Assembly (NCBI RefSeq): GCF_032854445.1
Contig: NC_088295.1
Span: 32,146,510-32,210,509 of the forward strand
Length of the DNA: 64,000 nucleotides
Direction: 5' to 3'
Origin: Liolophura sinensis
Taxonomy: Eukaryota
Below are positions 22,733-58,394 of the stretch, one piece after another (position 1 is the first letter of the stretch; each line of letters begins with the position of its first letter). The translations under genes and the position numbers were made by a program. The notes under the pieces were generated by a model that saw nothing but the letters and a program-made list of their open reading frames with translations, was not told where the DNA came from and made no database searches.

Positions 22733-22879
22733 TACATACCCTCTTTTTACGTGTCCTCCATTATTTAGCATGGCGCACCCTTGGTGCCGTCTGTACTTGT
22801 CATAGTTCAGTGTATGTTCATTAACATGTCACATTCTATGTGCCATATGTGTTCATGAAATGTTACACTGTATATGCAT

Positions 22880-23340: not shown

Positions 23341-23526
23341 TAAGCCCTTTGTTTATTAAAATGACCCACTATAAATTTGGTCTCGTCATTGAATATGTCA
23401 AATTATATATGTAGTATTTTCATTAAAATGCATCATTATATATGTCAGCTCCTCACTAACCTATCACACTCAAGTTTTATATTTACTGATGATACATGTA
23501 CACATACTGTATATTTGAAAATGCAG

Positions 23527-26069: not shown

Positions 26070-26163
26070 ACAAAACAAGAATGACAAGAAGAGCAAAGTG
26101 GCCTACAAGACCATCTTTGAGAATGTCCGAAAGATGGAGAATCAAGTAAATGTGATCCAACAG
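26070..26163 (+). CDS. Gene B exon 14
   Basis: Acceptor ttctgttttag| and donor CAG|GTATGT. Reads (R)QNKNDKKSKVAYKTIFENVRKMENQVNVIQQ. The 30-bp minisatellite begins right at the donor. Confidence 0.6.
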
Positions 26164-26165
26164 GT

Positions 26166-27715
26166 ATGTTTGTTATCTACCGGTGCATAACATGTAGGTT
26201 TGTTATCTACAGGTGTATAACATGTAAGTTCGTTATTTACAAGTGTATGGCATGTAGGTTTGTTATCTACAGGTGTATAACATGTAAGTTCGTTATTTAC
26301 AAGTGTGTAGCATGTAGGTTTGTTATCTACAGGTGTATAACATGTAAGTTCGTTATTTACAAGTGTATGGCATGTAGGTTTGTTATCTACAGGTGTATAA
26401 CATGTAAGTTCGTTATTTACAAGTGTATAGCATGTAGGTTTGTTATCTACCAGTGTATAGCATGTAAGTTTGTTATCTACCAGTGTATAGCATGTAAGTT
26501 TGTTATCTACCAGTGTATGGCATGTAGGTTTGTTATCTACAGGTGTATAACATGTAAGTTCTTTATTTACAAGTGTATAGTATGTAGGTTTGTTATCTAC
26601 CAGTGTATAGCATGTAAGTTTGTTGTCTACCAGTGTATGGCATGTAGGTTTGTTATCCACCAGTGTATAGCATGTAGGTTTGTTATCTACCAGTGCATAG
26701 CATGTAAGTTTGTTATCTACCAGTGTATGGCATGTAGGTTTGTTATCTACCAGTGTATAGCATGTAGGTTTGTTATCTACCAGTACATAGCATGTAAGTT
26801 TGTTATCTACCAGTGTATGGCATGTAGGTTTGTTATCTACCAGTGTATGGCATGTAGGTTTGTTATCTACCAGTGTATAGCATGTAGGTTTGTTATCTAC
26901 CAGTGCATAGCATGCAGGTTTGTTATTTACCATTGTGTAGCATGTAGGTTTGTTATCTACCAGTGTATAGCATGTAGGTTTGTTATCTACCAGTGTATAG
27001 CATGTAGGTTTGTTATCTACCAGTGTGTAGCATGTAGGTTTGTTATCTACCAGTGCATAGCATGTAAGTTTGTTATCTACCGGTGTATGGCATGTAGGTT
27101 TGTTATCCACCAGTGTATAGCATGTAGGTTTGTTATCTACCAGTGTATAGCATGTAGGTTTGTTATCTACCAGTGTATAGCATGTAGGTTTGTTATTTAC
27201 CAGTGTGTAGCATGTAGGTTTGTTATCTACCAGTGCATAGCATGTAAGTTTGTTATCTACCAGTGTATGGCATGTAGGTTTGTTATCCACCAGTGTATAG
27301 CATGTAGGTTTGTTATCTACCAGTGCGTAGCATGTAAGTTTGGTATCCACCAGTGTAGGGCCTGTAGGTTTGTTATCTACCAGTGTATAGCATGTAGGTT
27401 TGTTATCTACCAGTGTATAGCATGTAAGTTTGTTATCTACCAGTGTATGGCATGTAGGTTTGTTATCTACCAGTGTATAGCATGTAGGTTTGTTATCTAC
27501 CAGTGTATAGCATGTAAGTTCGTTATTTACAAGTGTATAGCATGTAGGTTTGTTATCTACCAGTGTATAGCATGTAGGTTTGTTATCTACCAGTGCATAG
27601 CATGTAGGTTTGTTATCTACCAGTGTATAGCATGTAGGTTTGTTATCTACCAGTGCATAGCATGTAAGTTTGTTATCTACCAGTGTATAGCATGTAGGTT
27701 ATATAGCTTATAGGT
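26166..27715 (+). repeat. Minisatellite of about 51 copies of a 30-bp unit (catgtaggtttgttatctaccagtgtatag), starting exactly at the 5' splice site of gene B exon 14
   Basis: The first unit is the donor itself (cag|GTATGTTTGTTATCTACCGGTGCATAA); later units are variants (GTAGGT / GTAAGT). The 515-aa and 402-aa track ORFs here are purely periodic. Confidence 0.95.
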
Positions 27716-35749: not shown

Positions 35750-35795
35750 ATGAAGACGCTGGTCACTTTAATAGCCTGTCTGTTGTATGTTACAG
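35750..35795 (+). CDS. Gene C exon 1: start codon and signal peptide (MKTLVTLIACLLYVT)
   Basis: attaagATGAAG context, a hydrophobic leader, and donor G|GTAAGA (phase 1). Confidence 0.65.
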
Positions 35796-37162
35796 GTAAG
35801 ATCATTCTGTTTTCTCAAACGATTCTCAAGTATTCAGTTATATACCTGAAGTTTATACCATTTCATTCATAAGGCCGGTGTTTTGAATCCTCATACACTT
35901 AGGTAGTATATATATAACTGTAACTCCTTGAAGCCGATATGCAGAATTTTATATACAGAACTGTGTACAGAACTTCTTTAAAACTATGGCGGTCCTCCCA
36001 CAGCTTTTGGAGAGAAAAATAAAATAAAAACGCACATGTATGTAAATAGACCTTGGACTTGGCCGAGGAGTAACAGCCCACCCTGTTCATTACCAATACA
36101 GGTTTCTGACAAACACTATATATAATGATCATGTATAGGCCTATATCATCATAATTCGGTTTCCCAGTCCATCTGTACTCATATAATACCAGATATCGGA
36201 CTGGAATGTTTCATAATACATTTACCGTGAGAGCTATACAGTTGTACATATATATGGCAGATTCAGACGTATACATTTTCATTTCCGAATAAGTAATAGC
36301 AGACTTAATTTATGTGCATCTGAAGTTTAACATAAAATCCGCTTTCTGAGCGGATCTATGTCACATCCGTCCATATGCAAGCAAGCCTGAAATACACCAC
36401 CAGTTTTCAAGCCCACGCATTGTAGATACAATAAAACGTATATAAAAATAATACTTCAATACAATGTATAGCAATATTTTCATCACTTGTTATTTTCATC
36501 ACTAGGTACGCCTAGGTCTGTTGATAAATCCATTACAGTTTGACGAGGTATGCAGACTGTACCTCCGTCTATGCTGACATGCACAGACCTACATGTATTT
36601 ATATGCATTTCGATATTCTGATTTATGCATCAGTAATTTATGCATATAGCGAAAAGGAAGACAACACATAAAATTTCAATCCATTTCAAAGAAGTCAGTG
36701 TGTTAAACCGTCTTCAGAAAGTAGCTTTATAAATTGTTACTTTGTTTATAGATTTTCTTTCCTGTCTTATTTTCATACACTCACATAAAGTATGTATATG
36801 TTAAGTCACTTGTATGTATTTCTGGATATAACAGAAACTTACTGACTGTGTGAACGTATCTATTGTATGTCATACTTTGTTGTTTTAGCTATATGGATAA
36901 GCCCGGAATTGTTTCGACGCCATCCTTTCACAAAAGCGTAGTTAGCCGTTGTTACGTGTGTGTACAAATTATATAAAAATTAATGTCATGTGCTCTTTTC
37001 CACTTAATCTTGTTTCCTATGCTATAAAAAATATTCAAATGATGACTGAAATGTAAGAATAAATATAAAAGCATCAGTTTATTTGTCTTCTACACGTACG
37101 TGTATCTGCAACCTTGTACAGTTTAAGGATATAGATTTGTACCATCATATTTTTCTCGACAG

Positions 37163-37286
37163 TGACGTCAGCACAAGATTGTTCAGCCATTGCCCTAGAG
37201 TCCCGTTACAAGAGCTGCTTGGATCAGTTCATCAACACGTACTACAGCCCCACGGCTAACGGGACAGCCTCCCAAGCAGACTGCGT
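37163..37286 (+). CDS. Gene C exon 2 (module I, first half)
   Basis: Acceptor ttttctcgacag| and donor GT|GTAAGA. Reads (V)TSAQDCSAIALESRYKSCLDQFINTYYSPTANGTASQADC. Confidence 0.65.
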
Positions 37287-38356
37287 GTAAGAGTTTCATT
37301 ATACATATTACTCCCATCCAGAGTTGGGGATGTGCTGAAGGTTAAAACACCCTTTCTGTAAAAAGATGTAAAATTAACCAAATCGTCTACATATATTATC
37401 ATAATTATTACAAAGAACAACACTAGGAGATAAATCGTCTATGGGTGATAACAGGAGACGTTACCCGCCCAAATAAGACGGTTCTATAAGATAAAAAAAA
37501 ACGCCATTCTCTGCTAGAACGTCTCACAACCTGTGGTATCTGTTTGTTTTATGATTAAATCTAGGGACACAATAGGGAAACAGTTTCTTTCAAATCATGC
37601 TCCTGCTTTTCTGTGTAGGATAACAGCATATGTGTTACAAGACTTCAGGCAGAGATGACCAAAAAGAGTTTGTTTATTTATTTGATTGAGATGTAATTCC
37701 TTATATTTAAGAATAAGTCACTTATAGAATGCATCTTATAGTGAAAGGAGAACCATTTATGTTCTCGTCATCTGGCCGTCTGAGTAAGAAACCGCAGCTC
37801 ACATATATGACGACCTGGCGGTATAGCAGACTTGATGAACATGATGTAGCGGGTGTTTGGGTATACTCTGATGACGTCACAAGGAGTTTCCACTCTATAA
37901 CACACTTTTATTGTTAGAATAACTCTTATTACCTATAAGTGAAAGACTACTTAAATAACATTCACAAGAAAATTTACCTTCAGGTGAATAGGAAGGATAA
38001 AAGGTGACCTCATATCGTGTACTCTATACGTCACTGACCGTGTAGTTCATAAAGCCTGCCCAAGAATTGAACTATTTGACTGCGTTTATTCCATTTTGAA
38101 GTCCAAAAATATGAGTAAAAGTCCCCTGGTGTATAGTTTTGAGTGTTAAAGTCCATTCCTTAAATGATAAGACGTTTGAATCGCTTTCTTTATCTCGATA
38201 CTTTTTCATTTCCTTTACCCTATTTTTCGTGTACAGTAATTTGGAAATACATCCCATTTTTCCTTATTAGTCTTTCGGTTCCCAGATAACCTATTTATCA
38301 TCGCCATATGCATTGCACTATATTTTTATGATTTTATTTGAAATGTTTTGTATTAG

Positions 38357-38493
38357 GCAAGCCAGAGATGAAGGGGTAGCTTGTGTTACCAGCCTACTTA
38401 CCGACTGTTCATCTACAGAACCCCAGCTAACAAAGATTATTGTCTCAGCCAATGCAGAAAAGGCCTTCGATTTTGCCTGTGACAGAATAAACG
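38357..38493 (+). CDS. Gene C exon 3 (module I, second half)
   Basis: Acceptor ttttgtattag| and donor G|GTAAGA. Reads (V)QARDEGVACVTSLLTDCSSTEPQLTKIIVSANAEKAFDFACDRIN. Matches track ORF 38313..38504. Confidence 0.7.
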
Positions 38494-38949
38494 GTAAGAT
38501 TTGACGTATTAATTACTATTTAACGTTATCAGTGAAAGTGCTGGTACGCTCAGAGTTATTCCCCTTCATTCGCTTTCCGGATTGCCAATGTCAGTGCATG
38601 TTATTTCTATATTTCCGGCTATTGAATCACCTTCAGGAATCTCAACGGGAATCAAAGTAATGAAAATATACATAACTGATTTTATAAGATAAATGCACAG
38701 TGCATATATACATCCAGTAATCTTAACAATTTCAGTATGAAATGCTGTAATATAGTACGTGATACATCTGCGCTATACACAGAGGATATACACAATCGTT
38801 ACACAGAGGATATATATGGTTCATTCAGTTTTTAATTCCCATTGAAATATATATCTTACCATGAGCTACTTGGGAATTGAATTAAGCCTTTTCTGATGCA
38901 CAAAGGACCTTAACAATTGATTTGTGATTTTAATTCAATCAAGAATTTT

Positions 38950-39092
38950 AAGTGGGAAGGTCGGCCAGCAACCTGCGGATGGGCGTGGGTTTCCCCCGGG
39001 CACTTCCCTGTTTCCACCCACCATAACGCTGATAGCTGTCGTATAAGTGAAATATTCTTGAGTACGGCGTAAAACACCAGTCAAAGAAATAA
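38950..39092 (+). mobile_element. SINE family 1 copy (5'-truncated), in an intron of gene C
   Basis: gtgggaaggtcggccagcaacctgcggatgggcgtgggtttcccccgggc..ccaccataacgctgatagctgtcgtataagtgaaatattcttgagtacggcgtaaaacacc. Confidence 0.8.
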
Positions 39093-39233
39093 ATAAATTA
39101 ATTCAATCTGGTCTTTGGTGATCCTTGATTAATGTATGTAACCACGGGGTTAATCATCCGCCAATATGCATTCGCTTGAAGTTGGAGTCATATATGCGGA
39201 AATATTTCTTCCAACCCTGCTTTCTGTATTCAG

Positions 39234-39372
39234 ATGTGTCGTTGGCTAACCAGTGTTATAAAACCGTCAATGCCAGTAGCCAGTTACAAGGCTGCGAACA
39301 GACGAAGCGCCAGGAAACAAGCCAGCTTCTGGGTCTGGGCAACAACGCCACCAACGGCCAGTCACTATGCGT
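39234..39372 (+). CDS. Gene C exon 4 (module II, first half; N-glycosylation sequons NAS and NAT)
   Basis: Acceptor ctttctgtattcag| and donor GT|GTAAGT. Reads (D)VSLANQCYKTVNASSQLQGCEQTKRQETSQLLGLGNNATNGQSLC. Confidence 0.7.
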
Positions 39373-39552
39373 GTAAGTAAACGTGTATCAACATCAATAT
39401 TGTTATAACTACCTTGGACATCATCTTATATGTCTTCTAAAGGCAAACCTTTGGAAAGTCAATACTGTTATTATAATTATGGCTTCGCTTAGCAATTTAT
39501 AATAGGTTATAAGAATACAAGGGTGAACATCGTTTGAAATTTTCCTAAAGAT

Positions 39553-39786
39553 TTTATATTTATTTACTTGATTGGAGTTTTACGCCATACTCTTGAATAT
39601 CTCACTTATACGACGAGGGCCAACATAATGGTGGGAAGAAATCAGACAGAACAAGGTGGAAACCTAGTAGGCCTACCATCCGCACGCTGATGGCCGACCA
39701 TAATGAGAAGCCATAATGAGCTGGACTTCAACTCACAGCGATGTTGTTCTAAACTAGCATTCTGACCACCAAGCCACGGAAGCCCC
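39553..39786 (-). mobile_element. SINE family 1 copy, in an intron of gene C
   Basis: Reverse complement matches the family consensus, including the tRNA-like head (..ggggcttccgtggcttggtggtcagaatgctag..). Confidence 0.8.
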
Positions 39787-39856
39787 TATGCGTTTTACAA
39801 TTATGTTTAGATGTTATCACAGGATCCGCGTATTACATATACCTCTATATCTGCAG

Positions 39857-39990
39857 GTTTCTCGAGGCTCATAGCACGTGTCTGGCATCAAGGATGCAGT
39901 CTCAGTGCCAGTCACAAAGTGTGGAATTCGTCCAACTTCTTGGCACCTATCTACCAACCGACTGTGCGACTTTAAAGTCCGACCCAACGG
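39857..39990 (+). CDS. Gene C exon 5 (module II, second half)
   Basis: Acceptor ctctatatctgcag| and donor G|GTAAGT. Reads (V)FLEAHSTCLASRMQSQCQSQSVEFVQLLGTYLPTDCATLKSDPT. Confidence 0.7.
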
Positions 39991-40262
39991 GTAAGTTACC
40001 AAGTATGTGTTACCCCAGATAGTTGGTTCTCAAAGTTCTCAAGAACGCGGTCGATACTGACTTACCTTTAACGTTCCCTATAGGATTTGGTACAGCATCA
40101 AACGGCCCTCGACAGTTGTATTCATGACCGTTTTTGTTGTGCAATATGAAGCTTCTTGGAGAAGACTCATATACCTTCTACAATTATTGAGCATACACCC
40201 AACTCGCTGGGTGTATCTGTGGTTTACAGTCTCAGTAGTCTAAAGCGTTGTGTTCGCTGTAA

Positions 40263-40405
40263 CCTTAGGCTCCGGGGCCCGTTCTACAAAGCTGTCACAG
40301 CACTACGCTAAGTGCATGTACCATGGTGATGTATGTATTCACTATATGTTGCCATGGAAAATACGACAGGTGCAATTTGCGACTGCTTCGTAACACAGGC
40401 CCCTG
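40263..40405. mobile_element. Small hairpin / MITE-like element related to 4855-4978
   Basis: Left ggctccggggcccgttctacaaagctgtcac.. is an imperfect inverted match to the right ..gtaacacaggcccctggtc. It shares the gggcccgtt(t/c)cacaaagc terminus with the 4855 element. Confidence 0.4.
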
Positions 40406-42123
40406 GTCTGGGAATTACACTTATGTCAAAATTTCAAATCACTTTAAAATAGTTATTTCTTAAACAACAAGGTCAAAATATTACTTGGCAACGTAAATTC
40501 TTAGTAAGTAATTGTAAAACAAATTTCAGGTGAAATAACAGAAAGTAACAAACTAAATGTAATGGTTCAAATTTGACTTACGTCCAGGATCGTTTCGTGA
40601 TCCCGAGGCCATGATCAAGCATAGGGTGCTTGATACAGTCATGCCCCCCACCCCTTTCAAAAGTTGGAGGCCAGCATATCCATTGCCTCTGAGTTACTCA
40701 GCGTAGGCGGTTTTTGAAGTACAAAAGTTCATGCCACATATACTGAAATGATGGTATTTTTATAATAATTTTTCTGCAACGTCGGTTTTGTATTTTCTGC
40801 ATCCATGCAACCATGGCTGCAATTGTCGTAAGATTGTGAATTTTGATTATTTCTCAAAGATTTTGCTTTTCCAGATCACATGATATAGTGTCACGAAGTT
40901 ATATATACCTGTTTTTCCAAACTGATAATGTGCCAAAATTACACAGGTTTATGTAGATTTGCTTGTTTATATTAAAATATACAAAATCTCCCATGGACGG
41001 GCAAATCATCTAGAGTATAATTTGACAAAAAAGTGGACTTATTTGTCTTCAAACACAATCTTTTTTTCTAATTTAGTGACTGTGTTTCAGTGCGATGAAG
41101 TTGCAGTTCTATTCAGCCCAAAAAAGCAGAATAATTAATATATTTGTACAATATATGCACTCATCGGTGTTAAGTTATTTATTTCATTATGGTTTATGGT
41201 CATTCCAAGATCATTTCACTTAGGACGGGTTGCAAGATTCATCAGTGAAGGAAAGATAAGTAACCGTTGTAAACACCGACTTTGGCACGTTACTGACAAT
41301 TCCCCTAAATCAGACGCACGCCTTTTTTTGTTCCAAAGGCCTGATAAAAATGTGTATCTATACATGTGAATGACATTGATTTCAATCGAAAGCAAGCCAG
41401 CGCGAATTGGCCGGCAAGTTTACCACCAAGGCACGGTAAAAACACGGATGTTTCTTTCCACCGATTCTCCTCCATACGAGTTAAATGCTTGTATTAGTCA
41501 CTCTACACCAACCTTTCTCAGACATGCTTAAATTCAATGTTGAATTCTAGATAAATTGTTACAATGTTCATTTTTGACCCGTGGTTCTCCAGGCAAAAGC
41601 GTCAACAAATGAGATAAACGTCTATTTCAATATTTCCAGGCAGGCTTAAATAGTCAATAACACCTCAGTTGGCATATGTAAGATACGGCAAATCGTCTCT
41701 AAGGCGATATAGCTCCTTCAGAGCTTCCGGGGCCTTGGCAGCCCCTGGACCCTCTGCGGCCCCTGGACCCTTTATTACTTGGACTTGCCTCCCACCCCCA
41801 CCCTCACTTTGAAATTGCTTCCTACGCCCCAGGGGAAGTATCTATGGCCGAATAGCTGGTTCGGCGGAGACTTTAAGTATAGAGGGTGACAAACAGGCAT
41901 GCAGTGTATTACATCTGCAGGCACCCTCCAAGGCAAGGCAGTGTGTGCATGTATACATGATTACGTGTACAGGTTTCCGTTTTCTTAATTAGTAACCTGT
42001 GGTATAAGATAGCAAATTAACCAGAAGTTAAGCCATGTTGGCTAAAATAAATCTATCTGTAGAACTCGTGGACTGTATTTTATATGTATTATAATATATT
42101 TTATATCTCTACATGTTTATCAG

Positions 42124-42238
42124 CGGAGGAGGAGAAGAGTCCATGCGGAGATGACGCTGTCATGGTTAACTTCACCGTCTGCGTCAAGCCCTTCTTTGAC
42201 AGAATAGAAAGTCTTGATTTAGAAAAGAAAAAATGCGA
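42124..42238 (+). CDS. Gene C exon 6 (module III, first half)
   Basis: Acceptor acatgtttatcag| and donor GA|GTAGGT. Reads (A)EEEKSPCGDDAVMVNFTVCVKPFFDRIESLDLEKKKC. Confidence 0.6.
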
Positions 42239-42613
42239 GTAGGTATCATTTCATCCACCAGAATTATTTTGTATTTAAAAAAGTGTCTGAGAGTAAATTA
42301 AGGTATAACATAAAGCACACATCGTAAAATATACACATCGTATCTCGTATTCATTTAATACTTGTTGCCGAGGCCGGAACATATATGATGGAAACATAAT
42401 CCAAAGCTCTGTTGTGTGCTGATTATATATCGTAGATCATAACTGGCCTATACGGCTCTCTTTTCAAGTAGTTTCTGAAATTATTGTAAATACATATATA
42501 ATTTGAATGTTCGCGGGTTTTCATATATTGACGTACATATTTTTTGCCCTTATCTGAAATTTAATAAGTCAAATGCACTTATATATTCAAACCTTTTTTT
42601 TTATTTCAATTAG

Positions 42614-42753
42614 TGAATCTGTGACTGAGACATTAAAATGTGTGGCCAAAATTGTAAAGAAGTGTGCCAAAGAAGAGTTCAAATATATCCAGAAGTTGTT
42701 GGACTTAGCGCGAACAAAGAACGCCCTGGACTTCGGGTGTTCTCGGAACTGGA
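42614..42753 (+). CDS. Gene C exon 7 (module III, second half)
   Basis: Acceptor tttatttcaattag| and donor A|GTAAGA. Reads (D)ESVTETLKCVAKIVKKCAKEEFKYIQKLLDLARTKNALDFGCSRNW. Matches track ORF 42573..42770. Confidence 0.65.
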
Positions 42754-42754
42754 G

Positions 42755-42836
42755 TAAGAAAAACAATTAATAAACGCCAAAAAGAAAACTTTACAATGAA
42801 AAACAATTAATAAACGCCAAAAAGAAAACTTTACAA
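42755..42836 (+). repeat. 40-bp tandem duplication directly after the donor of gene C exon 7
   Basis: aaaaacaattaataaacgccaaaaagaaaactttacaat occurs twice. Confidence 0.85.
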
Positions 42837-42900
42837 TCTGACAAACACTTATACACAACTTCATTATGATATTGATAATGGTATTAAAAGGCCTGATGGA

Positions 42901-43086
42901 GACATGCCTGACCTAGTGGTTAGCGTGCTAGTGCAGCATAATCCAGAGCATTTCAAAGCATGTACAGCTCATGCTTGCTTGCTCGCCACAAGCTGCGGAT
43001 GGTCGTGGGGTTTCCCCTGGGCTCTGCCCGGTTTCCTCCCACCATAATGCTGGCCGCTGTCGTATAAGTGAAATATTCTTGAGTAT
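42901..43086 (+). mobile_element. SINE family 1 copy, in an intron of gene C
   Basis: ..ctagtggttagcgtgctagtgcagcataatcc..gctgcggatggtcgtggggtttcccctgggctctgcccggtttcctcccaccataatgctggccgctgtcgtataagtgaaatattcttgagtat. Confidence 0.8.
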
Positions 43087-43506
43087 ATGATTTTAGATAT
43101 TAGAAATGGTATTAAAAGATTTCATTATCTGTGGTGCCCCTGGTTTGTGCCCAGCCTGGGTTTCAAAGCCGCATAAATTTTCTCTGTTTCCTTCAAACAC
43201 GCCTTACAAAAAACAGCTATATATGAACAAGCACAGTAGGACAGAAATAATAACCATTCTAAAATCATACTCGCCTTTAACACGATTTATTGTTTTCTTA
43301 CAAATTTTCTCTTCCTTCATACACAAAAAAGAAAAATGTCTATGTATTTAATAATATTTTTTTATTTGAATGAAAGTGTTTTACCTGATAAGAAGAAAAA
43401 TTAAAGACGCTGATGCTGAAAAACTTTTTTGTTCATCAAAAGCGTTTAGGCGCGTGGTTCTATTCCAAGAATCATAACTGAGTTTGCCATTGGTGTTTTT
43501 CTTCAG

Positions 43507-43636
43507 ATCTGTCTGCAGGGGCCTTCTGTTATAACAAACACTACGGCAGCGACATCAAACCGTGTCTGGACATAAAGATGAGAGATCAAAAGATCTACGC
43601 TTCAGAGAAAGAGAGGACATTCAAGACTGTCTGTAG
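43507..43636 (+). CDS. Gene C exon 8 (module IV, first half)
   Basis: Acceptor gtgtttttcttcag| and donor AG|GTAAGT. Reads (N)LSAGAFCYNKHYGSDIKPCLDIKMRDQKIYASEKERTFKTVC. Confidence 0.65.
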
Positions 43637-44100
43637 GTAAGTGCTCTGTATAGACACCTGTCGGCTAAATCAGGCAAACATGCGTTTATTGTGCTTTGTA
43701 TCCAGGCCCAAGTTAAAGGTTTGTTTGTACTAAATGGTATAATTACTTTTCGGGTAATTCGGATCAGTTCTATTACACATTCCTGCGTTTGACATGGCGT
43801 ATATGCACATGTGTTGAAACAGAACAATGGTAAATTCAGCTTTGACCTGGTTCGACATTGCAGAGAGGTGAGGTAGCTCATTATAGGAGCGTATTATACC
43901 GTATTATAAAAGAAAGATGAGTCAATGCTTGTATCCAAAAACCATGGCAAATGTTAACGAAATAAAATATTCTATATGTACCTAAAACTAGACCTACACA
44001 CCGCGCATGCGTGTCGTTACCAACAGAATGTGTTTTTTTTTTAAGTGCAGTTTGATATGGTGGCTGATACCATCCATTTTTGACAACGACCTTAGCGACC

Positions 44101-44262
44101 ACACGGAGGGTGAGGTTTTAACAAAACCGCGGGTTCGCGGAGGGCGCGGATCCGTGTCCTCTGAGTGATTTGCGTGTTTTGCAGGGGCACAAAGGTCGGT
44201 GGGGGCCCGGTTCCGCGTGTTTCGCGGGGGCGCGAACGGTCGCGGTCCAGAATGATGCTATC
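44101..44262. repeat. GC-rich imperfect palindrome (CGCGG/CCGCG-rich) in the last intron of gene C
   Basis: ..aaccgcgggttcgcggagggcgcggatccg.. and ..gttccgcgtgtttcgcgggggcgcgaacggtcgcggtcc.. stand out against an AT-rich background. Confidence 0.5.
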
Positions 44263-44320
44263 AGCCACCATAGTTTGGTACCAAAACACAAAGAGACATA
44301 ATGCAATTGATATTTTCTAG

Positions 44321-44513
44321 GTACATCGACGCGACCACAGACTGTGCCAAAAGTGGAATGGAGACGTGTAAGGACGAGGCGGTGACCTTCACGGAGTACG
44401 TAAAGATGTTCTTCCCTAGGGACTGTACAGAAGACAATAACTCTGCCTCCTCAGTGTCGTCTGCTGTGTTGGGATTGCTGACGTCACTGTTACTAGTCCA
44501 CGCGCTGCTGTAA
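44321..44513 (+). CDS. Gene C terminal exon (module IV second half plus C-terminal GPI-anchor signal; stop TAA at 44511-44513)
   Basis: Acceptor gatattttctag|. Reads (R)YIDATTDCAKSGMETCKDEAVTFTEYVKMFFPRDCTEDNNSASSVSSAVLGLLTSLLLVHALL*. A small-residue omega region is followed by a hydrophobic tail. AATAAA lies about 320 bp downstream. Confidence 0.75.
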
Positions 44514-45484: not shown

Positions 45485-45762
45485 TATGCTCGCTGGGGCC
45501 TCCGTGGCTCAGTCGGTTAGCGCGCTAGCGCAGCGTAATCACCCAAGAGTCTCTCACCAATGCGGTCGCTGTGAGTTCAAGTCCAGCTCATGCTGGTTTC
45601 CTGTCCGGCCGTAAGTGGGAAGGTCTGACAGCAACCTGCGGATGGTCTTGGTTTCTTCCGGGCTCTGCCCGGTTTCCTCCCACCATAATGCTGGCCGCCG
45701 TCGTATAAGTGAAATATTCTTGAGTACGGCGTAAAACACCATTCAAATAAATAAATAAATAA
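45485..45762 (+). mobile_element. SINE family 1, full-length reference copy (tRNA-like head, conserved core, (AAATAAAT)n tail)
   Basis: ggggcctccgtggctcagtcggttagcgcgctagcgcagcgtaatcacccaagag..gagttcaagtccagctcatgctgg..ccaccataatgctggccgccgtcgtataagtgaaatattcttgagtacggcgtaaaacacc..aaataaataaataaataa. Track ORFs here (45554..45872, -) are SINE-derived. Confidence 0.9.
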
Positions 45763-46823
45763 CATATGCTAGCAATAATTAAGCCACGCGGGTCGTGAGA
45801 AAAGTTTATTACTTTCGTTTTGTATATCAGTATATGGTACACATCGCCATAAATCGTCTCAGTCAAACACAAAACCCTTGGCCTATTTCATTTACTTTTC
45901 TACAGAAAAAAGGTCATTGTACCAACATCAGTTTATTGTACATGCAAACTTTTGTTAAACATTGTTTTCGTTTGAAAATAAAACGTATATATTCATGCTT
46001 GCTTTCCTTTCTGTTTTATTTATCTCTGTTCGTTCACTAAAAAAAATACCTTTTGTTTTGTATTGACGTGCAGAAGTCTCAGTAAGGTTCAGTACTAATG
46101 ATATATATTGCCATAGTTTATAATTAATTCCCCATACTGATACTTAAAAAAAAACATGTTAACGGATGGCACCACAGCAGTGTCCCTAAATCTCCGAGGC
46201 TCCGATAATCCCAGTCCTATTTTTCACAAAACTGACCAACAGCTGTTAGGTGATAAACCGACACAGTTAAATGTCAGTGAAACAGCTAGGACTGAATACC
46301 ACTTTTGCCCAGTGTTTGTCCGCCTCCATTTCCTGAAAAACACACAAATTTATACCTAGAACAAACTTTGAAGCCCCTGGTACAAAATGTTACCACTTAA
46401 TATGTAGGGGGAAAATCCAAAAAAGGCAGTGCAAAGTTTTTAAAGTATTTTAAAATAGCATGTAGGCCTAACATGAGCAAGACACAACCATAGTAAGAAT
46501 GTTTCGGGAGGGAGGAGAATACACGACTCTGTCGATAACCGCATCGAAATAAGCATTTTTATATAATTTGATTTATCGGAAGAAATGATAAAGTAATTCC
46601 CCTGTCGACATAATAACTAATCAAACTCTGCGCGAGATGCACTTGAAGTACTTCTGAGGGCCAGCTATCAGCGTTTGTAGAAAATCATTTAGAGTTACCT
46701 CCCCACCCATTGCCCAACAGAGGGTGTGGATAATACAACGACAACATGACGGTCAAATAGGCAACATCCATGTTTCGGAAGATCTTCTGCCTTGCAAGAA
46801 GACACATATCATTGTGTGCGAAC

Positions 46824-47366
46824 ATGACTGATGTACGCGGGCGGTTCTTTGTCAATCAGTTTCCTGATTACGACACAGGCTCAATCGTGACGATTGACGA
46901 GTCCCGATGGAGTGACGCAGTCCGGTCCCTGGCGGATGAGGTTTATGAAAACATGAAGCCCGAACCGGACAACTCGGGCGGTGGACTGTATGTTGGCAAT
47001 GCCGGGCTGGCGTACATGTTCTACTATCTATCAAAAATCAAACATCTGTCAGCTAAGAGGGAGAAATACCTCGAGAAAGCTATGGAGTATTTAGAACAAG
47101 CCATTGCCCACATAAACAGCAAGTCGTGTCGCGATCCCGTTACGTCGTTTATCATTGGCAAGACGGGAGTTTATGCGGTCGGTAGCGTTATATTAAATGA
47201 AATAGGCAGTGATAAGTCTTCCAAAATGGCAGTCCAGTTTGCTCAGGTGGCTAACGTGTGTAAAACTGCCGGAGATTTCCTAGGCTGTGGGTCTGATGAG
47301 TTATTTATCGGTCGTGCCGGGTATCTGTGCGGAGTGCTGTTTCTGCATAAAGCCTTGGGTCGAAAG
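46824..47366 (+). CDS. LANCL: LanC-like protein, copy 1, exon 1 (an in-frame upstream ATG at 46770 is also possible)
   Basis: MTDVRGRFFVNQFPDYDTGS..GLYVGNAGLAYMFYYL..ELFIGRAGYLCGVLFLHKALGRK aligns with the LANCL1/2 N-terminal half (RAFPNPYADY; GYTGWAGIAVLYLHL; EMLYGRIGYIYALLFV). Donor AAG|GTATAT. Confidence 0.8.
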
Positions 47367-48240
47367 GTATATAGGTCAGCCGTGTCTAGCGCCTAGTTTT
47401 TAAGTGAATAGTTCATATCTTTACATTCCGTGGTATTATATTCACATCGCAATGTTCTGTCCCAGTATGAAAGTTAAAATATCAACGGCAGTTATTTGGT
47501 AGCTGTGCAGTCATCCAGCAAGACCTGTAACGTTGAAATCCCAGGTTATTTCCCTGGTTTTGACTCTAAACCAGAAACCACAATGACCTCCAGAACACAA
47601 GGAAGTTATCAATAGTGCATTTTGGAAATGGCTTGAAATTAAAATATGGACGTCTGCGATTAAAAAAAAAACTATTGGGGATGGTGGTATTGTTTCTTAT
47701 TTTTCATTTGATCGAATAACCTCATTTGGCTATGAAAATAATATCGCTACAAGAATTGTGGGTGTTTCTTTTTTATGGACTGAACTAAATATGAATTAAA
47801 AGCTCAAGTACCAGGAAGTGGGCGGCCATATAGTGACAAGAGTTGCATATAAAATGTAACCAACAAATATTTAATACTAAATGCTTGTCATTACATGAAG
47901 GCTTGAAAGATAAATAGATTTATATACTGGCAAAATCTGCCTGGGGTGTCGTGGAATATTTGGCCAACAGCAAATCATGAAGTTATCTTACGGCGGTAAT
48001 GCTATTAAATATAGCCATGAATTGTCACAATAAATGTCAACATTGCTTTTGGCCCTTGCAGTTCCTCGTATTTCTATCTTTTCTTTACGCAAACATTCAA
48101 TAAAAAATATATATAACCGTATACAACATGTATATGAACGTCTATAACAACTTCTAAAAAGACAAAAATCTAGCACTGAACATTACCATCTGTCACATAC
48201 TAATACAGGCGTGGTGAATTTCACCTATTTTTATGCACAG

Positions 48241-48364
48241 GTTGTCGGGGACAAAGACATCCATGGCGTTTGCGCGGCTATTGTCAAGTCCGGGAGAGAT
48301 TATGCCAAGACACACCACTCACCATGTCCTCTTATGTACGCCTACTACAAAGCTGAATGTCTAG
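48241..48364 (+). CDS. LANCL: LanC-like protein, copy 1, exon 2
   Basis: Acceptor ttttatgcacag| and donor G|GTATAA. VVGDKDIHGVCAAIVKSGRDYAKTHHSPCPLMYAYYKAECL matches LANCL ..KSPLMYEWYQEYYV. Confidence 0.8.
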
Positions 48365-49333
48365 GTATAAACACCCTGCAAGGACCATCTCTTTTTCTGT
48401 TTGCATGGACAGGATGTCGCAGGCTATATACATAAGAGTGGTCATTTGATGACGCTTTACTACTACACTTTATATTTGAAATACAAATGATGCATCTCAG
48501 AAAAAATCAAATGGTAGATGTTCATTTATCATTGACTGCTAACTGCACGGTTACATGAAATCCATGTTGATAATGGAAAGGTTTTTAAATTACTGTAGAA
48601 ATATGATCAGATATGTAGGGAACTGTAACAACTACAGGCGAAGTGCAATGTTCAGTCATTCTGCAAAATCGGCCGGGGGGTTATCTGCTCTCCTTTTTGC
48701 TTAGTTTGTCCGAAAAAAAGACTGACTTGATTATTTAGCGACGCAAGATATTGTTGGCCAATAAAAGATTTATATCTAATCAGAAGTTGACAACAGATAC
48801 AGGCAAGTTTACCATGACCATAGTTATTTAGAACAATTTGCAATTGAGGGATAGCATGTCAGAAATCGGAGATAGTTAAGTCTTGGTGCTATATATAAAA
48901 TTCCGTGTTAACTTTCTTAACACGCCAGCACCAGCAAGGCAAAAGTGAACAAGAAATTTAAGCTAGACCATTATGGAATAAATTCCAAAGTTTTCCCTTC
49001 CTTTTGTTCTCTTTTGGTTTAAAAAATATTGCTCCTTTAACGTAGTCGTAAATGTAAATATGTTCATGCGTCCACAAGGTTTCTCAGCTGCATAACATTT
49101 GTTTCGCCCCTGTCTACGAATGGATTTATGGACGATGGATTCAAGCGACAATGCGGATGCTTGATGCATATAATTGTTGAAACTACCTTTTAAGAGAAAT
49201 ATCTGGAGATTGATAAGAGACAAATGTACCCATTATAAACAGCGTTCATGTTAAATATTACTTCAGCAAATTATAAGAATTTTTTAAAAATAGTTAAGTT
49301 AACCAGTTAACAACCGTTTCAATGTTGTACCAG

Positions 49334-49549
49334 GTGCCGCCCACGGCCTGTCCTCCATTCTCCAAATGCTGCTGTCTTTCCCTGACTATCTCCAATCGGA
49401 CCCGGCCACAGAGGCTGATGTCAAGGCATCCGTGGACTTCATGTTGAGTCTAGAACAGCCGAACTTTAACTATGCCCTTGCCATGGACGAGGTTGGCGCC
49501 CCGAGGAGTGAGGCTGATCAGCTGGTACATTGGTGTCACGGGGCTCCCG
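49334..49549 (+). CDS. LANCL: LanC-like protein, copy 1, exon 3
   Basis: Acceptor tgttgtaccag| and donor G|GTATGT. (G)AAHGLSSILQMLLSFPDYLQ..NFNYALAMDEVGAPRSEADQLVHWCHGAP matches LANCL GAAHGLAGI..LLVHWCHGAPG. Confidence 0.85.
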
Positions 49550-50398
49550 GTATGTCCTGCCTAGTAAACAAAAATAATCGCCTATACTTGTTATATTTGA
49601 AAGATGAAAACAAGGTTAAAAACAAAGAGTATAAAACATTTTCATATTATCACCTAAAATGTATACGAGCGGTTTGTTGATAATGAATTTGAGGACGTTA
49701 GTACCAGTTTAGAGCTAACGCTTTAATGGAAACGTTTAAAACAGGGATCGATCAGATGGTGGTTGTTATAGAATTAGTTAAAGTATAACGTTGCAAACAG
49801 GATACTATGTTCCTTTAGCAATAAAGCTATTTTTCTTTCACCAAGCTCCCTAAGTTAACCGAGACCAAACGCAAACGTAAGATACCGGTAATGGTGACTG
49901 TACAGTCCATGGTTTAGGAAACCCGAAAAGCGGCTGTCTCTGGACAGGTGTGAAGTCATCTGGGAATAGCATTTCTTTGTAATGGGATATATTACTCTCG
50001 GACTTCATCTGTAAGTATAGTCATGGTGAAGATAGGCTTCAATATGATGAACCGTATTGAAAAAAAAATAGTAGGGTAATAGTAACTGGTTCGTGGTGGA
50101 CTGACAGACACGAGTTTGAGGCTTTCCAATTATCAAGTATTAAAATCGCGACATCATTGTTAACTGTAGCGACGGGTCAAATTAGACCACTTAACCAGCA
50201 CGCATATAACTGATAAATTGATTGAGTGGTGATTAGCGCTGTGCTCAAGAATTTTTCACTTGCATCACGGCGGTGGCGTTTATCAGGACATGTGATTCCT
50301 TTATAGAAGTAAGTGGTCGCAATGGCTGTTCCTGGAAACAAGACGCGTGGTTAGATTAGTATTACGCTGTGTAGAATGTCGTGCTTGTTCGAAAATGG

Positions 50399-50399
50399 G

Positions 50400-50460
<61 letters not shown>

Positions 50461-50470
50461 TATATATATG
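50399..50470. repeat. (AT)n microsatellite, interrupted
   Basis: Directly visible. Shorter in copy 2 (57776-57817). Confidence 0.95.
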
Positions 50471-50756
50471 TATGTATATGGCAGTAATTAAGTAATTAAA
50501 TGAGAAATATTAGTCATGGAATGTATGTGGGACACGAATCGTAACAACTAACCGAAGTGTGTCTCCTAAGCAAAATATACACAGACAAATGGTTACAACA
50601 GTTATAATTGGAAAACGAATGGCTAGATGCTAAGTTATTTTCGTACTAAAATTTAGCATACCATATCGTTCAAGGAACAATTTTGGGTTTGCAAGCAATA
50701 GCTAAAATGTCTTCACTTATAAATCCATTTACCCCTAATTGTGTTTGTTCCGCTAG

Positions 50757-51121
<365 letters not shown>

Positions 51122-52374
51122 AGAGTTGCCACCGGCCTGCGGATGTCACGCAAAGCAGTCGGAGTATGGACATGTGATCCAACCATCACGAAGTTGGCAG
51201 CACAAGCATCATGGATTAATAATGAAATGAGGACTGAACATGGCATGTAAATAGTTATATGGCATATTCAGTCATGATTTTATTTTCAATCCAGTGACCG
51301 TTGCTTGTGGTTGGATGTCGTTGGTATGATATCCTCGTTTGTCTCGGCTTAGGAAAGAGCTTTACCACTGTTTTGCAAGACGGACTTCATAAATCTTTTT
51401 GCCATCTTTAACATTCCGTTTTAGCCATTGCTTTGTTTTATTGTTGAGATGAAAGTTTAGTGCTTTGATTTACAAATACATTGATCATTTATACGTTACA
51501 GATAATTTATATTGCATTTTCCCACATATTATTTATGTGTTTACAAACCAACTCAAATTTGCATTAAATTTACTTTTTTATCTTTTTGTCCCATGTTGTT
51601 TCAGTTTGCAAAGAAGTTTTTTAAATGGGTTAGAGGCAAATTAGACCGAGCCATATTGGCTATAGCAACGTTTGTTATCCATATGAAATGTGTTCTGTAT
51701 CAAATTAGCGATAACAGTTTGATTTTATACCATGTATGTAGCCCTGCAGGGTGTAGTGTAATAAAGCACGTGTTAGTACATGTACCTGTACTCCGAATCA
51801 CGGCACACAGAATAAAGCATAGTTGTCATCCGTAAAGACTTATGTTAACTTCTTGCGCAATCGTTAACATATGTTGTATTAAAAATGAAAGCTTTTTTGG
51901 GTGCAAAGGAATCTATTGTGTGGATACGAATGTATGTGTAAAACCATGCAGTGAAATAGAATTAGAAGTCAACCAAGATAATATATATTATTGCATAAAT
52001 AGTACATACCTTTGTAGGGCTGTTCGTTTTGTGCTCACGTAAAGTACTTTGACAATGACATAGTGAGGGAGTGGTGCACAAGCCACCAATAATTTCATTG
52101 GGCGTCGTAATTTTGAGTTACTAGGAATGAATTCTGATGCACTTTTGTAATAAAAGACAATAGGGGTTTCGATATACCTGATGCATGATTGTCTTTCAAC
52201 CTCTTGGACACAAGGGTCTTGGTGCAATCCAAGCGTGGGAAATGCGGGGAATCCCCGGGATTCCTTAGCCTCCACTGCTGTCAGAGCCTTGGTGACACTA
52301 AGGCTATAACCTCGGATGATAACCAAAATGTGAAGAGTTCGCATGCATGCATGCATTGGACCATCTATTTGATA

Positions 52375-52811: not shown

Positions 52812-53066
52812 GGGGCCTCCGTGGCTCAATCGGTTAGCGCGCATTGGTCTCTCACCAATGCGGTCGCTGTGAGTTCAAGTCCAGCTCATGCTGGCTTCCT
52901 CTCCGGCCGTACGTGGGAAGGTATTCCAGCAACCTGCAGATGGTCGTGGGTTTCTCCCGGGCTCTGCCCGGTTTCCTCCCACCATAATGCTGGCCGCCGT
53001 CGTATAAGTGAAATATTCTTGAGTTCGGCGTAAAACACCAATCAAATCAAATCAAATCAAATCAAA
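52812..53066 (+). mobile_element. SINE family 1 copy with an internal deletion in the tRNA-like head and an (ATCAA)n tail; paralogous to 45485-45762 in the duplication
   Basis: ggggcctccgtggctcaatcggttagcgcgc[deletion]attggtctctcaccaatgcggtcgctgtgagttcaagtccagctcatgctggcttcctctccggccgtacgtgggaagg... Confidence 0.85.
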
Positions 53067-54200
53067 CACACTTTACAGTATGTTTAACCGTTCACAGCTT
53101 TAGGATGCACTGTGTACTTGGCGATGCATGGATTTATAACATTATGTACATATGCTAGCAATAATTAAGCCACGCGGGTCGTGAGAAAAGTTTATTACTT
53201 TCGTTTTGTATATCAGTATATGGTACACATCGCCATTAATCGTCTCAGTCAAACACAAAACCCTTGGCCTATTTCATTTACTTTTCTACAGAAAAAAAAC
53301 CCATTGTACCAACATCACTTTATTGTACATGCAAACTTTTGTTAAACATTGTTTTTGTTTGAAAATAAAACGTATATATTCATGCTTGCTTTCCTTTCTG
53401 TTTTATTTATCTCTGTTCGTTCACTAAAAAAAATACCTTTTGTTTTGTGTTGACGTGCAGAAGTCTCAGTAAGGTTCAATACTAATGATATATATTGCCA
53501 TAGTTTATAATTAATTCCCCATACGGATACTTACATGTTAACGTTTGGCACCACAGCAGTGTCCCTAAGTCTCCGAGGCTCCGATAATCCCAGTCCTATT
53601 TTTCACAAAACTGACCAACAGCTGTTAGGTGATAAACCGACACAGTTAAATGTCAGTGAAACAGCTAGGACTGAACACCACTTTTGCCCAGTGTTTGTCC
53701 GCCTCCATTTCCTGAAAAACACAAAAATTTATACCTAGAACAAACTTTGAAGCCCCTGGTACAAAATGTTACCACTTAATATGTAGGAAAAAAATGGCAG
53801 TGCAAAGTTGCAATAGAAAATATATTTTAAAATAGCATGTAGGCTTAACATGTGTAAGACACAACCATTGTAAGAATGTTTCGGGAGGGAGGAGAATACA
53901 CGACTCTGTCGATAACCGCATCGAAATAAACATTTTTATATAATTTGATTTATCGGAAAAGGTGATAAAGTGATTCTCTTGTCGACATAATAACTAATCA
54001 AACTCTGCGCGAGATGCACTTGAAGTACTTCTGAGGGCCAGCTATCAGCGTTTGTAGAAAATCATTTAGAGTTACCTCCCCACCTATCGCCCAACAGAGG
54101 GCGTGGATAATACAACGACAACATGACGGTCAAATAGGCAACATCTATGTTTCGGAAGATCTTCTGCCTTGCAAGAAGGCACATATCATTGTGTGCGAAC

Positions 54201-54743
54201 ATGACTGGTGTACGCGGGCGGTTCTTTGTCAATCAGTTTCCTGATTACGTCACAGGCTCAATCGTGACGATTGACGAGTCCCGATGGAGTGACGCAGTCC
54301 GGTCCCTGGCGGATGAGGTTTATGAAAACATGAAGCCCGAACCGGATAACTCGGACGGTGGACTGTATGTTGGCAATGCCGGGCTGGCGTACATGTTCTA
54401 CTATCTATCAAAAATCAAACATCTGTCAGCTAAGAGGGAGAAATACCTCGAGAAAGCTATGGAGTATTTAGAACAAGCCATTGCCCACATAAACAGCAAG
54501 TCGTGTCGCGATCCCGTTACGTCGTTTATCATTGGCAAGGCGGGAGTTTATGCGGTCGGTAGCGTTATATTAAATGAAATAGGCAGTGATAAGTCTTCCA
54601 AAATGGCAGTCCAGTTTGCTCAGGTGGCTAACGTGTGTAAAACTGTCGGAGATTTCCTAGGCTGTGGGTCTGATGAGTTATTTATCGGTCGTGCCGGGTA
54701 TCTGTGCGGAGTGCTGTTTCTGCATAAAGCCTTGGGTCGAAAG
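54201..54743 (+). CDS. LANCL: LanC-like protein, copy 2, exon 1 (an in-frame upstream ATG at 54147 is also possible)
   Basis: As copy 1; about 98% identical. MTGVRGRFFVNQFPDYVTGS....LGRK. Donor AAG|GTATAT. Confidence 0.85.
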
Positions 54744-55625
54744 GTATATAGGTCTGCCGTGTCTAGCGCCTAGTTTTTAAGTGAATAGTTCATATCTTTA
54801 CATTCCGTGGTATTATATTCACATCGCAATGTTCTGTCCCAGTATGAAAGTTAAAATATCAACGGCAGTTATTTGGTAGCTGTGCAGTCATCCAGCAAGA
54901 CCTGTAACGTTGAAGTCCCAGGTTATTTCCCTGGTTTTGACTCTAAACCAGAAACCACAATGACCTCCAGAACACAAGGAAGTTATCAACAGTGCATTTT
55001 GGAAATATCTTGAAATTAAAATATGGACGTCTGCGATTAAAAAAAAAGTAACGGGGATGGTGGTATTGTTTCTTATTTTTCATTTGATCGAATAACCTCA
55101 TTTGGCTATGAAAATAATATCGCTACAAGATTTGTGGGTGTTTCATTTCTGTGGACTGAACTAAATATGAATTAAAAGCTCAAGTACCAGGAAGTGGGCG
55201 GTAATATAGTGACAAGAGTTGTATATAAAATGTAACCAACAAATATTTAATACTAAATGCTTGTCATTACATGAAGGCTTGAAAGATAAATAGATTTATA
55301 TACTGGCAAAATCTGCCTGGGGTGTCATTGAGTATTTGGCCAACAGCAAATCATGAAGTTATCTTACGGCGGTAATGCTGTTAAATATAGCCATGAATTG
55401 TCACAATAAATGTCACAACATTGCTTGTGGCCCTTGCAGTTCCTCGTATTTCTATTCTTTTCTTTACGCAAACATTCAATAAAAAATATATATATATATA
55501 ACCGTATACAACATGTATATGAACGTCTGTAACAACTTCTAAAAAGACAAAAATCTAGCACTGAAAATTACCATATGTGACATACTAATACAGGCGTGGT
55601 GAATTTCACCTATTTTTATGCACAG

Positions 55626-55749
55626 GTTGTCGAGGACAAAGATATCCATGGCGTTTGCGCGGCTATTGTCAAGTCCGGGAGAGATTATGCCAAGAGACAC
55701 CACTCACCATGTCCTCTTATGTACGCCTACTACAAAACCGAATATCTAG
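55626..55749 (+). CDS. LANCL: LanC-like protein, copy 2, exon 2
   Basis: Acceptor ttttatgcacag| and donor G|GTATAA. Reads VVEDKDIHGVCAAIVKSGRDYAKRHHSPCPLMYAYYKTEYL. Confidence 0.85.
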
Positions 55750-56712
55750 GTATAAACACCCTGCAAGGATCATCTCTTTTCTGTTTGCATGGACAGGATG
55801 TCGCAGGCTATATACATAAGAGTGGTCATTTGATGACGCTTTACTACTACACTTTATATTTGAAATACGAATGATGCATCTCAGAAAAAATCAAATGGTA
55901 GATGTTCATTTATCATTGACTGCTAACTGCATGGTCACATGAAATCCATGTTGATAATGGAAAGGTTTTTAAATTACTGTAGAAATATGATCAGATATGT
56001 AGGGAACTGTAACAACTACAGGCGAAGTGCAATGTTCTGTCATTCTACAAAATCGGCCGGGGAGTTATACGCGCTCTTTTTTTTCTCAGATGTCAGGGAA
56101 AAAATAACTCTGACTTGATTATTTAGCGACGCAAGATATTGTTGGCCAATGAAAGATGTATATCTAATCAGAAGTTGACAACAGATACAGGCAAGCTTAC
56201 CATGACTATGGCCATAAAAACAATTCTCTTTGCCATTGAGGGATAGCATGTCAGAATCGGAGATAGTTAAGTCTTGGTGCTATACATAAAATTCCGTGTT
56301 AACTTTCTTTAGACCAGCAAGGCAAAAGTGAACAAGAAATTTAAGCTAGACCATTATGGAATAAATTCCAAAGTTTTCCCTTCCTTTTGTTCTCTTTTGG
56401 TTTAAAATATTGCTCCTTTAACGTAGTCGTAAATGTAAATATGTTCATGCGTCCACAAGGTTTCTCAGCTGCATAACATTTGTTCGCCCTGTCTACCGAA
56501 TGGATTTATGGACGATGGATTCAAGCGACAATGCGGATGCTTGATGCATATAATTGTTGAAACTACCTTTTAAGAGAAATATCTGGAGATTGATAAGAGA
56601 CAAATGTACCCATTATAAACAGCGTTCATGTTAAATATTTCTTCAGCAAATTATAAGAATTTTTTAAAAATAGTTAAGTTAACCAATAACAACCGTTTCA
56701 ATGTTATACCAG

Positions 56713-56928
56713 GTGCCGCCCACGGCCTGTCCTCCATTCTCCAAATGCTGCTGTCTTTCCCTGACTATCTCCAATCGGACCCGGCCGCAGAGGCTGATGT
56801 CAAGGCATCCGTGGACTTCATGTTGAGTCTAGAACAGCCGAACTTTAACTATGCCCCTGCCATGGACGAGGTTGGCGCCCCGAGGAGTGAGGCTGATCAG
56901 CTGGTACATTGGTGTCACGGAGCTCCCG
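56713..56928 (+). CDS. LANCL: LanC-like protein, copy 2, exon 3
   Basis: Acceptor gttataccag| and donor G|GTATGT. Reads (G)AAHGLSSILQMLLSFPDYLQSDPAAEADVKASVDFMLSLEQPNFNYAPAMDEVGAPRSEADQLVHWCHGAP. Confidence 0.9.

Positions 56929-57774: not shown

Positions 57775-57775
<1 letters not shown>

Positions 57776-57817
<42 letters not shown>
57776..57817. repeat. (AT)n microsatellite
   Basis: Directly visible. Confidence 0.95.

Positions 57818-57820
<3 letters not shown>

Positions 57821-57995: not shown

Positions 57996-58394
<399 letters not shown>

Follow-up and report, generated by a model that had tools for sequence, protein, structure and literature searches.

Which protein family does a nine-exon gene of the chiton Liolophura sinensis belong to, when its product strings together four six-cysteine modules, each encoded by its own pair of exons? 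The gene occupies positions 35,750 to 44,513 of a 64,000-nucleotide stretch of contig NC_088295.1 (assembly GCF_032854445.1, positions 32,146,510 to 32,210,509), referred to below as the window. An initial annotation of this window had singled out the modules as a candidate for an undescribed domain family. Our analysis establishes with high confidence that the locus holds a real chiton gene under selective constraint. It further suggests, with a probability of about 0.6, that the modules are very divergent domains of the type found in neuritin (NRN1, also called CPG15), tandemly expanded in a surface ligand.

Gene model, protein and conservation

The nine exons (Table 1) splice into an open coding sequence of 1,158 nucleotides (nt) that specifies 385 amino acids (aa). 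All eight introns are of the GT-AG type with good polypyrimidine/AG acceptors, and their phases in gene order are 1,2,1,2,1,2,1,2, the strict alternation that the initial annotation had described. The spliced product matches the NCBI entry 'uncharacterized protein LOC135461640 [Liolophura sinensis]' along its entire length with 100% identity, showing that an independent annotation pipeline (RefSeq) arrived at the same gene model.

The protein opens with a signal peptide, continues with four modules of six cysteines and 83-91 aa each, and closes with a C terminus of the type that directs attachment of a glycosylphosphatidylinositol (GPI) anchor; the lengths first estimated were ~390 aa for the protein and about 85-90 aa for a module. 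Both the signal peptide and the GPI-attachment signal had been proposed before and are called here from hydropathy and residue rules. Hydropathy identifies only two hydrophobic stretches, one at the N terminus (the signal peptide) and one at the extreme C terminus, in the last ~20 residues; the sequence there runs ..DNNSASSVSSAVLGLLTSLLLVHALL up to the stop codon. Within this end of the protein the small residues NNSASSVSS precede a hydrophobic tail of 16 residues, AVLGLLTSLLLVHALL, with nothing after it, and candidate omega sites lie around residues 362-366. There are six NxS/T sequons, in line with the several noted earlier. Of the 25 cysteines, one lies in the signal peptide and the rest in the four modules, which have six apiece and share the spacing C-x(11-12)-C-x(17-24)-C-x(8-9)-C-x(7-8)-C-x(18-24)-C. 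This corrects the formula originally given, which listed seven cysteines and too long a last spacer (25-29 residues); in all other points the initial description of the protein is accurate.

Each of the four modules is encoded by an exon pair with phase-1/phase-1 flanks, confirming the symmetric unit recognized in the initial annotation, and each has an internal phase-2 intron in the codon directly after Cys3; the exons for the first halves measure 115-139 nt. The modules are mutually 12-21% identical and belong to two alternating subtypes. A-type modules (modules 1 and 3, together with module 1 of P0004, a relative described below) have the spacing C5-x23-24-C6 and end in F-x-C, and B-type modules (modules 2 and 4, and module 2 of P0004) have C5-x17-18-C6 and end in P-x-D-C. 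BLOSUM62 local scores for pairs of modules run from 63 to 71 within A and from 32 to 92 within B, as against 21-42 between A and B. The score pattern and the subtype ends together identify the protein as (A-B)x2. The most economical history for this arrangement is that the phase-1/phase-1 exon pair was duplicated first and the four-exon A-B block later. An AlphaFold2 (AF2) model of modules 3-4, built from a three-sequence alignment, is all-helical, with a predicted local distance difference test score (pLDDT) of 68.5 and a predicted template modelling score (pTM) of 0.63. With high confidence, the product is a secreted glycoprotein of four helical six-cysteine modules in the order A-B-A-B; it is very probably GPI-anchored.

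The gene is under constraint in a related chiton. Two Logan contigs (L002 and L004) carry its exons 1-8 in unchanged order; the splice sites are kept and the upstream region is syntenic. Over 276 aligned codons the orthologue pair has 84% aa identity, a ratio of nonsynonymous to synonymous divergence (dN/dS) of 0.19 and a synonymous divergence (dS) of 0.38. All 18 of the 18 comparable module cysteines are kept, the signal-peptide cysteine alone differing. This degree of constraint on codons, exons, splice sites and cysteines shows a constrained gene and not a chance chain of open reading frames (ORFs).

Relatives beyond this orthologue are few. An exhaustive phmmer search over 1.84 billion representative proteins gave three matches only, two of which are orthologue ORF fragments (86-87% identical, on genomic contigs of runs SRR26493808/9). 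The third, P0004, is a 240-aa protein with 26% identity (E=2e-9) and the sole non-orthologous relative found. It is encoded at positions 70-792 of an intronless contig of 1,140 nt (L001, Logan SRR6926326), presumably a transcript, and is laid out as a signal peptide, two modules (A-B) and a hydrophobic C terminus. Word-indexed searches for homologues, started from the protein and from a profile of two modules, yielded nothing beyond the protein itself and P0004, and there are no paralogues of the gene elsewhere in the window.

Comparison of the modules with neuritin

The initial annotation could place the modules in no known family. This still holds in so far as no curated threshold is reached and NCBI labels the protein 'uncharacterized', but one Pfam family, NRN1 (neuritin, PF15056, covering NRN1 and NRN1L), recurs among the matches, and it is the only one to do so. 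The whole protein gives a single Pfam match, to NRN1, at residues 309-349 in module 4 (E=0.008, 16.7 bits). Module 4 alone matches the same family at E=3e-4 with 21.3 bits, under the gathering cut-off of 27 bits, so the profile search that had been suggested for a single module returns a sub-threshold candidate and no confident placement. Modules 1 and 2 have no Pfam match of any kind. Sub-threshold matches of module 3 to RPW8 and Qua1, and of P0004 to YGR210-like and Vps55, were rejected as helical noise arising by chance.

Profile-profile comparisons were made with hhalign against vertebrate neuritins. The profile of all six modules (four from the window and two from P0004) aligns with neuritin at P=0.004-0.005 (probability 7%), the A-B unit at P=0.0014 and the B-type profile, set against 64 neuritins, at P=4.3e-4 (probability 34%), the last with Cys3-Cys5 in register; overall, the alignments put Cys2/3-Cys5/6 in register. 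As a control, the cysteine columns were held fixed and all other columns permuted in 200 shuffles. The real score was reached in 0/200 shuffles both for the B-type profile (26.9; shuffle mean 11.7, maximum 24.8) and for the six-module profile (21.0; mean 10.5, maximum 19.0). Scored with a purpose-built NRN1 hidden Markov model (HMM), all six modules fall in the upper tail of shuffles in which residues were permuted around fixed cysteines: shuffles reach the real score in 0/500 cases for module 4, in 5/500 for P0004 module 2 (R2) and in 16, 31, 51 and 87 of 500 for the others.

Neuritin and the chiton modules have six cysteines each. In neuritin these are spaced C-x9-C-x24-C-x8-C-x7-C-x27-C, and the central spacers agree between the two (C-x8-C-x7-C in neuritin, C-x8-9-C-x7-8-C in the chiton). 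Neuritin and chiton module 4 also have in common a KTVC-x-Y motif at Cys3. Clear similarity to neuritin is confined to the B-type modules.

The most independent evidence for the link comes from gene structure. The splicing of the neuritin loci of the milkfish Chanos (L003) and the great white shark Carcharodon (L005) could be solved exactly. In both species a 55-nt exon 1 stops in phase 1 within the signal peptide, and a 145-nt exon 2 ends TGC TC/gt or TGC GC/gt (the slash marking the exon end), which puts the next intron in phase 2 in the codon that follows Cys3. The position and phase of this second intron are identical to the nucleotide to those of the intron after Cys3 in all four chiton modules, for which the naive chance is ~1 in 250, given a domain of ~85 codons. 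A phase-1 intron inside the signal peptide is likewise found in neuritin and in the chiton gene.

The predicted order of helices and cysteines and the overall layout are also alike. The AF2 model of neuritin (64 sequences, pLDDT 67) and that of modules 3-4 present their elements in the same order: H1, with Cys1 at its start and Cys2 inside it, H2, which bears Cys3, 4 and 5, then H3 and a short end containing Cys6. Neuritin, 142 aa long, has a signal peptide and is GPI-anchored (PMC12715718); both it and the chiton protein combine a signal peptide and six-cysteine domain structure with a GPI-type signal a few residues past the last cysteine. The PDB holds no neuritin structure, and PDB sequence searches, whether started from the protein, from the module profile or from the profile of neuritin, found nothing real, matches to GPX4 and AvrPib being due to chance.

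On the strength of the NRN1 match, the cysteine frame, the layout, the predicted topology and the intron match, the module is best read as a divergent neuritin-type domain, and the probability of about 0.6 given above applies equally to homology with neuritin. The proposal of an undescribed domain family is not supported as it was made, because these same features fit neuritin. What is new here, we conclude with moderate confidence, is a tandem four-domain form from an invertebrate and not a wholly new class of domain; literature searches on invertebrate neuritin and neuritin-like proteins returned nothing relevant. We do not file the protein as a member of PF15056, because its score lies under the cut-off of that family and its architecture is not single-domain.

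A number of observations weigh against a relationship with neuritin. No module reaches the Pfam NRN1 gathering score of 27 bits, the NRN1 match is absent for modules 1-3 and for P0004, and the hhalign probabilities are low (7-34%). The shuffles used as controls break helical periodicity too, and any helical protein with this cysteine frame might therefore beat them. Outside the central spacers the cysteine frames differ, neuritin having x9 and x27 where the chiton modules have x11-12 and x18-24. The AF2 models are of moderate confidence (pLDDT 67-68) and were compared by the order of their elements; fold searches of the PDB with either model give generic helical bundles only, and the structure prediction that the initial annotation had recommended delivers an all-helical model with no specific fold match in the PDB. 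Neuritin is a protein of one domain (142 aa), whereas the chiton protein has four in tandem (385 aa) and two alternating subtypes. The neuritin matches are all from vertebrates among the best 120 of 255. Finally, P0004 R2 weakly matches a different family, arthropod DUF1397 (PF07165), at E=0.0043 with 16.9 bits, over positions 127-191 of the 207 in the profile and spanning five cysteines.

Could the modules instead form an orphan family restricted to chitons or to aculiferans, with a cysteine frame, GPI anchor and intron position shared with neuritin by convergence or coincidence? The paucity of relatives is what such a family would produce: 1.84 billion proteins yield two orthologue fragments and one relative at 26% identity, word-indexed searches add nothing, no curated threshold is passed, and hhalign probabilities stay at or below 34%. 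With modules mutually so dissimilar (12-21% identity), weak scores across families are also hard to interpret. We nevertheless regard this explanation as unlikely, since several independent kinds of agreement converge on a single family. Neuritin is the only recurring Pfam match (E=3e-4), the intron match is nucleotide-exact at naive odds of roughly 1 in 250, and the GPI layout, the predicted topology and the shuffle controls, which show a signal outside the cysteines, also favour it. The R2 match raises another reading, in which the modules belong with DUF1397, either instead of neuritin or jointly with it in a wider superfamily. DUF1397 proteins are secreted 27-kDa haemolymph, peritrophic-matrix and centipede-venom proteins of arthropods with unknown function, and, like the chiton protein, they are secreted and contain cysteines. 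The match lies in the C-terminal half of DUF1397, its 16.9 bits are under the gathering cut-off of 25.7, and neither the whole of P0004 nor any of the four modules in the window matches the family at E<=10, which makes this assignment improbable. As a possible though doubtful extension of the neuritin reading, the chiton modules, neuritin as a single-domain survivor and perhaps DUF1397 may be members of an ancient, so far unrecognised bilaterian superfamily of GPI-anchored, exon-pair-encoded, six-cysteine helical domains.

Architecture alone would suggest a receptor of the Ly6/uPAR type with several Ly6/uPAR (LU) domains, because uPAR is also GPI-anchored and has tandem cysteine-rich domains of two exons each. 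We consider this an analogous modular gene design in which fold class, cysteine number and motif differ. There is no UPAR_LY6 Pfam match at E<=10, the modules have six rather than 8-10 cysteines, with neither a CC pair nor a C-terminal CCxxxxCN motif, and the AF2 model of the chiton modules is all-helical where the LU fold is a three-finger beta-sheet. The Ly6/uPAR reading is thereby effectively refuted, and the initial annotation was right to set this family aside together with saposin, EGF and CFEM: these three and the insect odorant-binding proteins give no Pfam match at E<=10 with the whole protein or any module. GFR-alpha and GAS1 are GPI-anchored, multi-domain, helical, disulfide-rich extracellular co-receptors in neurotrophic signalling, and they resemble the chiton protein, as predicted here, in each of those structural respects. 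Membership of the GFR-alpha/GAS1 domain family was rejected, as there is no Pfam GDNF match at E<=10, the modules have six cysteines against ten, and the domain is absent from the PDB fold matches.

Sequence surrounding the gene

Repeats are scattered through the window, some of them within introns of the gene (Table 1). A SINE-like (short interspersed nuclear element-like) repeat of ~150 base pairs (bp), with the core ..ccaccataatgctggccgctgtcgtataagtgaaatattcttgagt.., has at least 11 copies in the window at 72-88% identity, and a further copy lies on contig L004 of the related chiton at 4406-4609. The repeat has no Rfam match at gathering thresholds, and no Rfam families were found in the window. 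Just past the exon 7 donor, intron 7 contains two perfect copies of a 40-bp unit in tandem (aaaaacaattaataaacgccaaaaagaaaactttacaat x2). Intron 8 contains a block rich in G+C and CpG, ..gcgggttcgcggagggcgcggatccg..ggttccgcgtgtttcgcgggggcgcgaacggtcgcgg.., flanked by an apparent inverted repeat (atggtggctgataccatc / gatgctatcagccaccat), which may be a small foldback insertion or one resembling a miniature inverted-repeat transposable element (MITE).

Downstream of the gene, a LanC-like gene (PF05147) lies within a tandem segmental duplication of ~96% identity. Upstream lies a pol fragment of a long terminal repeat (LTR) retrotransposon, with RVT_1 and RT_RNaseH in consecutive broken ORFs. Three long minisatellite arrays have open frames on both strands, for example ..VDNKPTCYTL.. 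over ~1.5 kb, and are probably non-coding tandem repeats and not genes.

Table 1 Exons of the gene and other features of the window, in window coordinates. Orthologous positions are on contigs of the related chiton. A slash marks the end of the signal peptide or of an exon.
Feature	Position	Strand	Content	Orthologous sequence
Exon 1	35750-35795	+	ATG and most of the signal peptide, MKTLVTLIACLLYVT; phase-1 intron next	L004 3030-3074 (ATG and exon kept)
Exon 2	37163-37286	+	Signal peptide end ..VTSA/QD; module 1 (A-type) first half, Cys1-Cys3; 3' end TGC GT/gt, phase 2, codon after Cys3	L004 4729-4857, 86% aa identity
Exon 3	38357-38493	+	Module 1 second half, Cys4-Cys6; phase 1	P0003 / L004 5422-5556, 87% identity
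Exon 4	39234-39372	+	Module 2 (B-type) first half; TGC GT/gt, phase 2 after Cys3	L002 438-578
Exon 5	39857-39990	+	Module 2 second half, ..LPTDC ATLKSDPT; phase 1	L002 1070-1192
Exon 6	42124-42238	+	Module 3 (A-type) first half; TGC GA/gt, phase 2 after Cys3	L002 2212-2328
Exon 7	42614-42753	+	Module 3 second half; phase 1	P0002 / L002 2619-2756, 93% identity
Exon 8	43507-43636	+	Module 4 (B-type) first half; ..FKTVC R = TGT AG/gt, phase 2 after Cys3	
Exon 9, first part	44321-44435	+	Module 4 second half, Cys4-Cys6, ..FFPRDC TED	
Exon 9, last part	44436-44513	+	GPI-attachment-type signal and stop codon	
SINE-like copy	5211-5358			
SINE-like copy	6057-6209	-		
SINE-like copy	20403-20550			
SINE-like copy	21919-22024			
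SINE-like copy	22588-22734			
SINE-like copy	38950-39100		Intron 3 of the gene	
SINE-like copy	39557-39699	-	Intron 4 of the gene	
SINE-like copy	42985-43085		Intron 7 of the gene	
SINE-like copy	45612-45760			
SINE-like copy	52910-53065			
SINE-like copy	59065-59214	-		
40-bp tandem duplication	42757-42836		Intron 7 of the gene	
G+C- and CpG-rich block	~44080-44260		Intron 8 of the gene	
Segmental duplication, first copy	46000-51290			
Segmental duplication, second copy	53387-58562			
LanC-like first-exon ORF	46770-47396		Near-identical to 54147-54773	
LanC-like first-exon ORF	54147-54773		Near-identical to 46770-47396	
Further LANC_like exon	56628-57059			
Further LANC_like exon	58014-58394			
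LTR-retrotransposon pol fragment	6348-8564	-	RVT_1, RT_RNaseH	
Minisatellite array	176-829			
Minisatellite array	22840-23343			
Minisatellite array	26142-27713			

Proposed mode of action, origin and significance

If the modules are neuritin-type domains, the way in which the protein works can be outlined. The signal peptide would route it into the endoplasmic reticulum, where each module would fold with three disulfides on a scaffold of roughly three helices and up to six sequons could be N-glycosylated. A GPI anchor would then replace the hydrophobic C-terminal tail a few residues past the last cysteine, as in neuritin, placing the protein on the outer leaflet of the membrane, from which it might be shed by cleavage of the anchor. 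Neuritin has neuronal, activity-regulated expression, promotes neurites or synapses, and is active both in its membrane-bound form and once released from the anchor (PMC12715718). By analogy, we infer that the chiton protein may serve cell-cell signalling as a ligand or co-receptor that is tethered to the membrane and possibly shed. The gene itself may have started as an ancestral single-domain gene of neuritin-like structure, whose exon pair would have been duplicated to give an A-B unit; a second duplication, of the four-exon A-B block, would then have produced A-B-A-B.

Should the neuritin link prove false, what is left would be a small orphan family confined to chitons, and of modest interest. 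Neuritin is a much-studied activity-regulated neurotrophic GPI protein, and its receptor is described as unclear in two papers (PMC3510849, PMC4125179). If the link is true, a four-domain neuritin-type protein in a mollusc would push the origin of the domain back to the bilaterian ancestor, would reveal that the domain is shuffleable as a phase-1/phase-1 exon pair, and would supply divergent sequences from which to predict structure and interfaces. If the wider superfamily reading is also true, neuritin would gain its first invertebrate relatives, and with them a naturally multimerised form in which to study its unsolved structure and unclear receptor.

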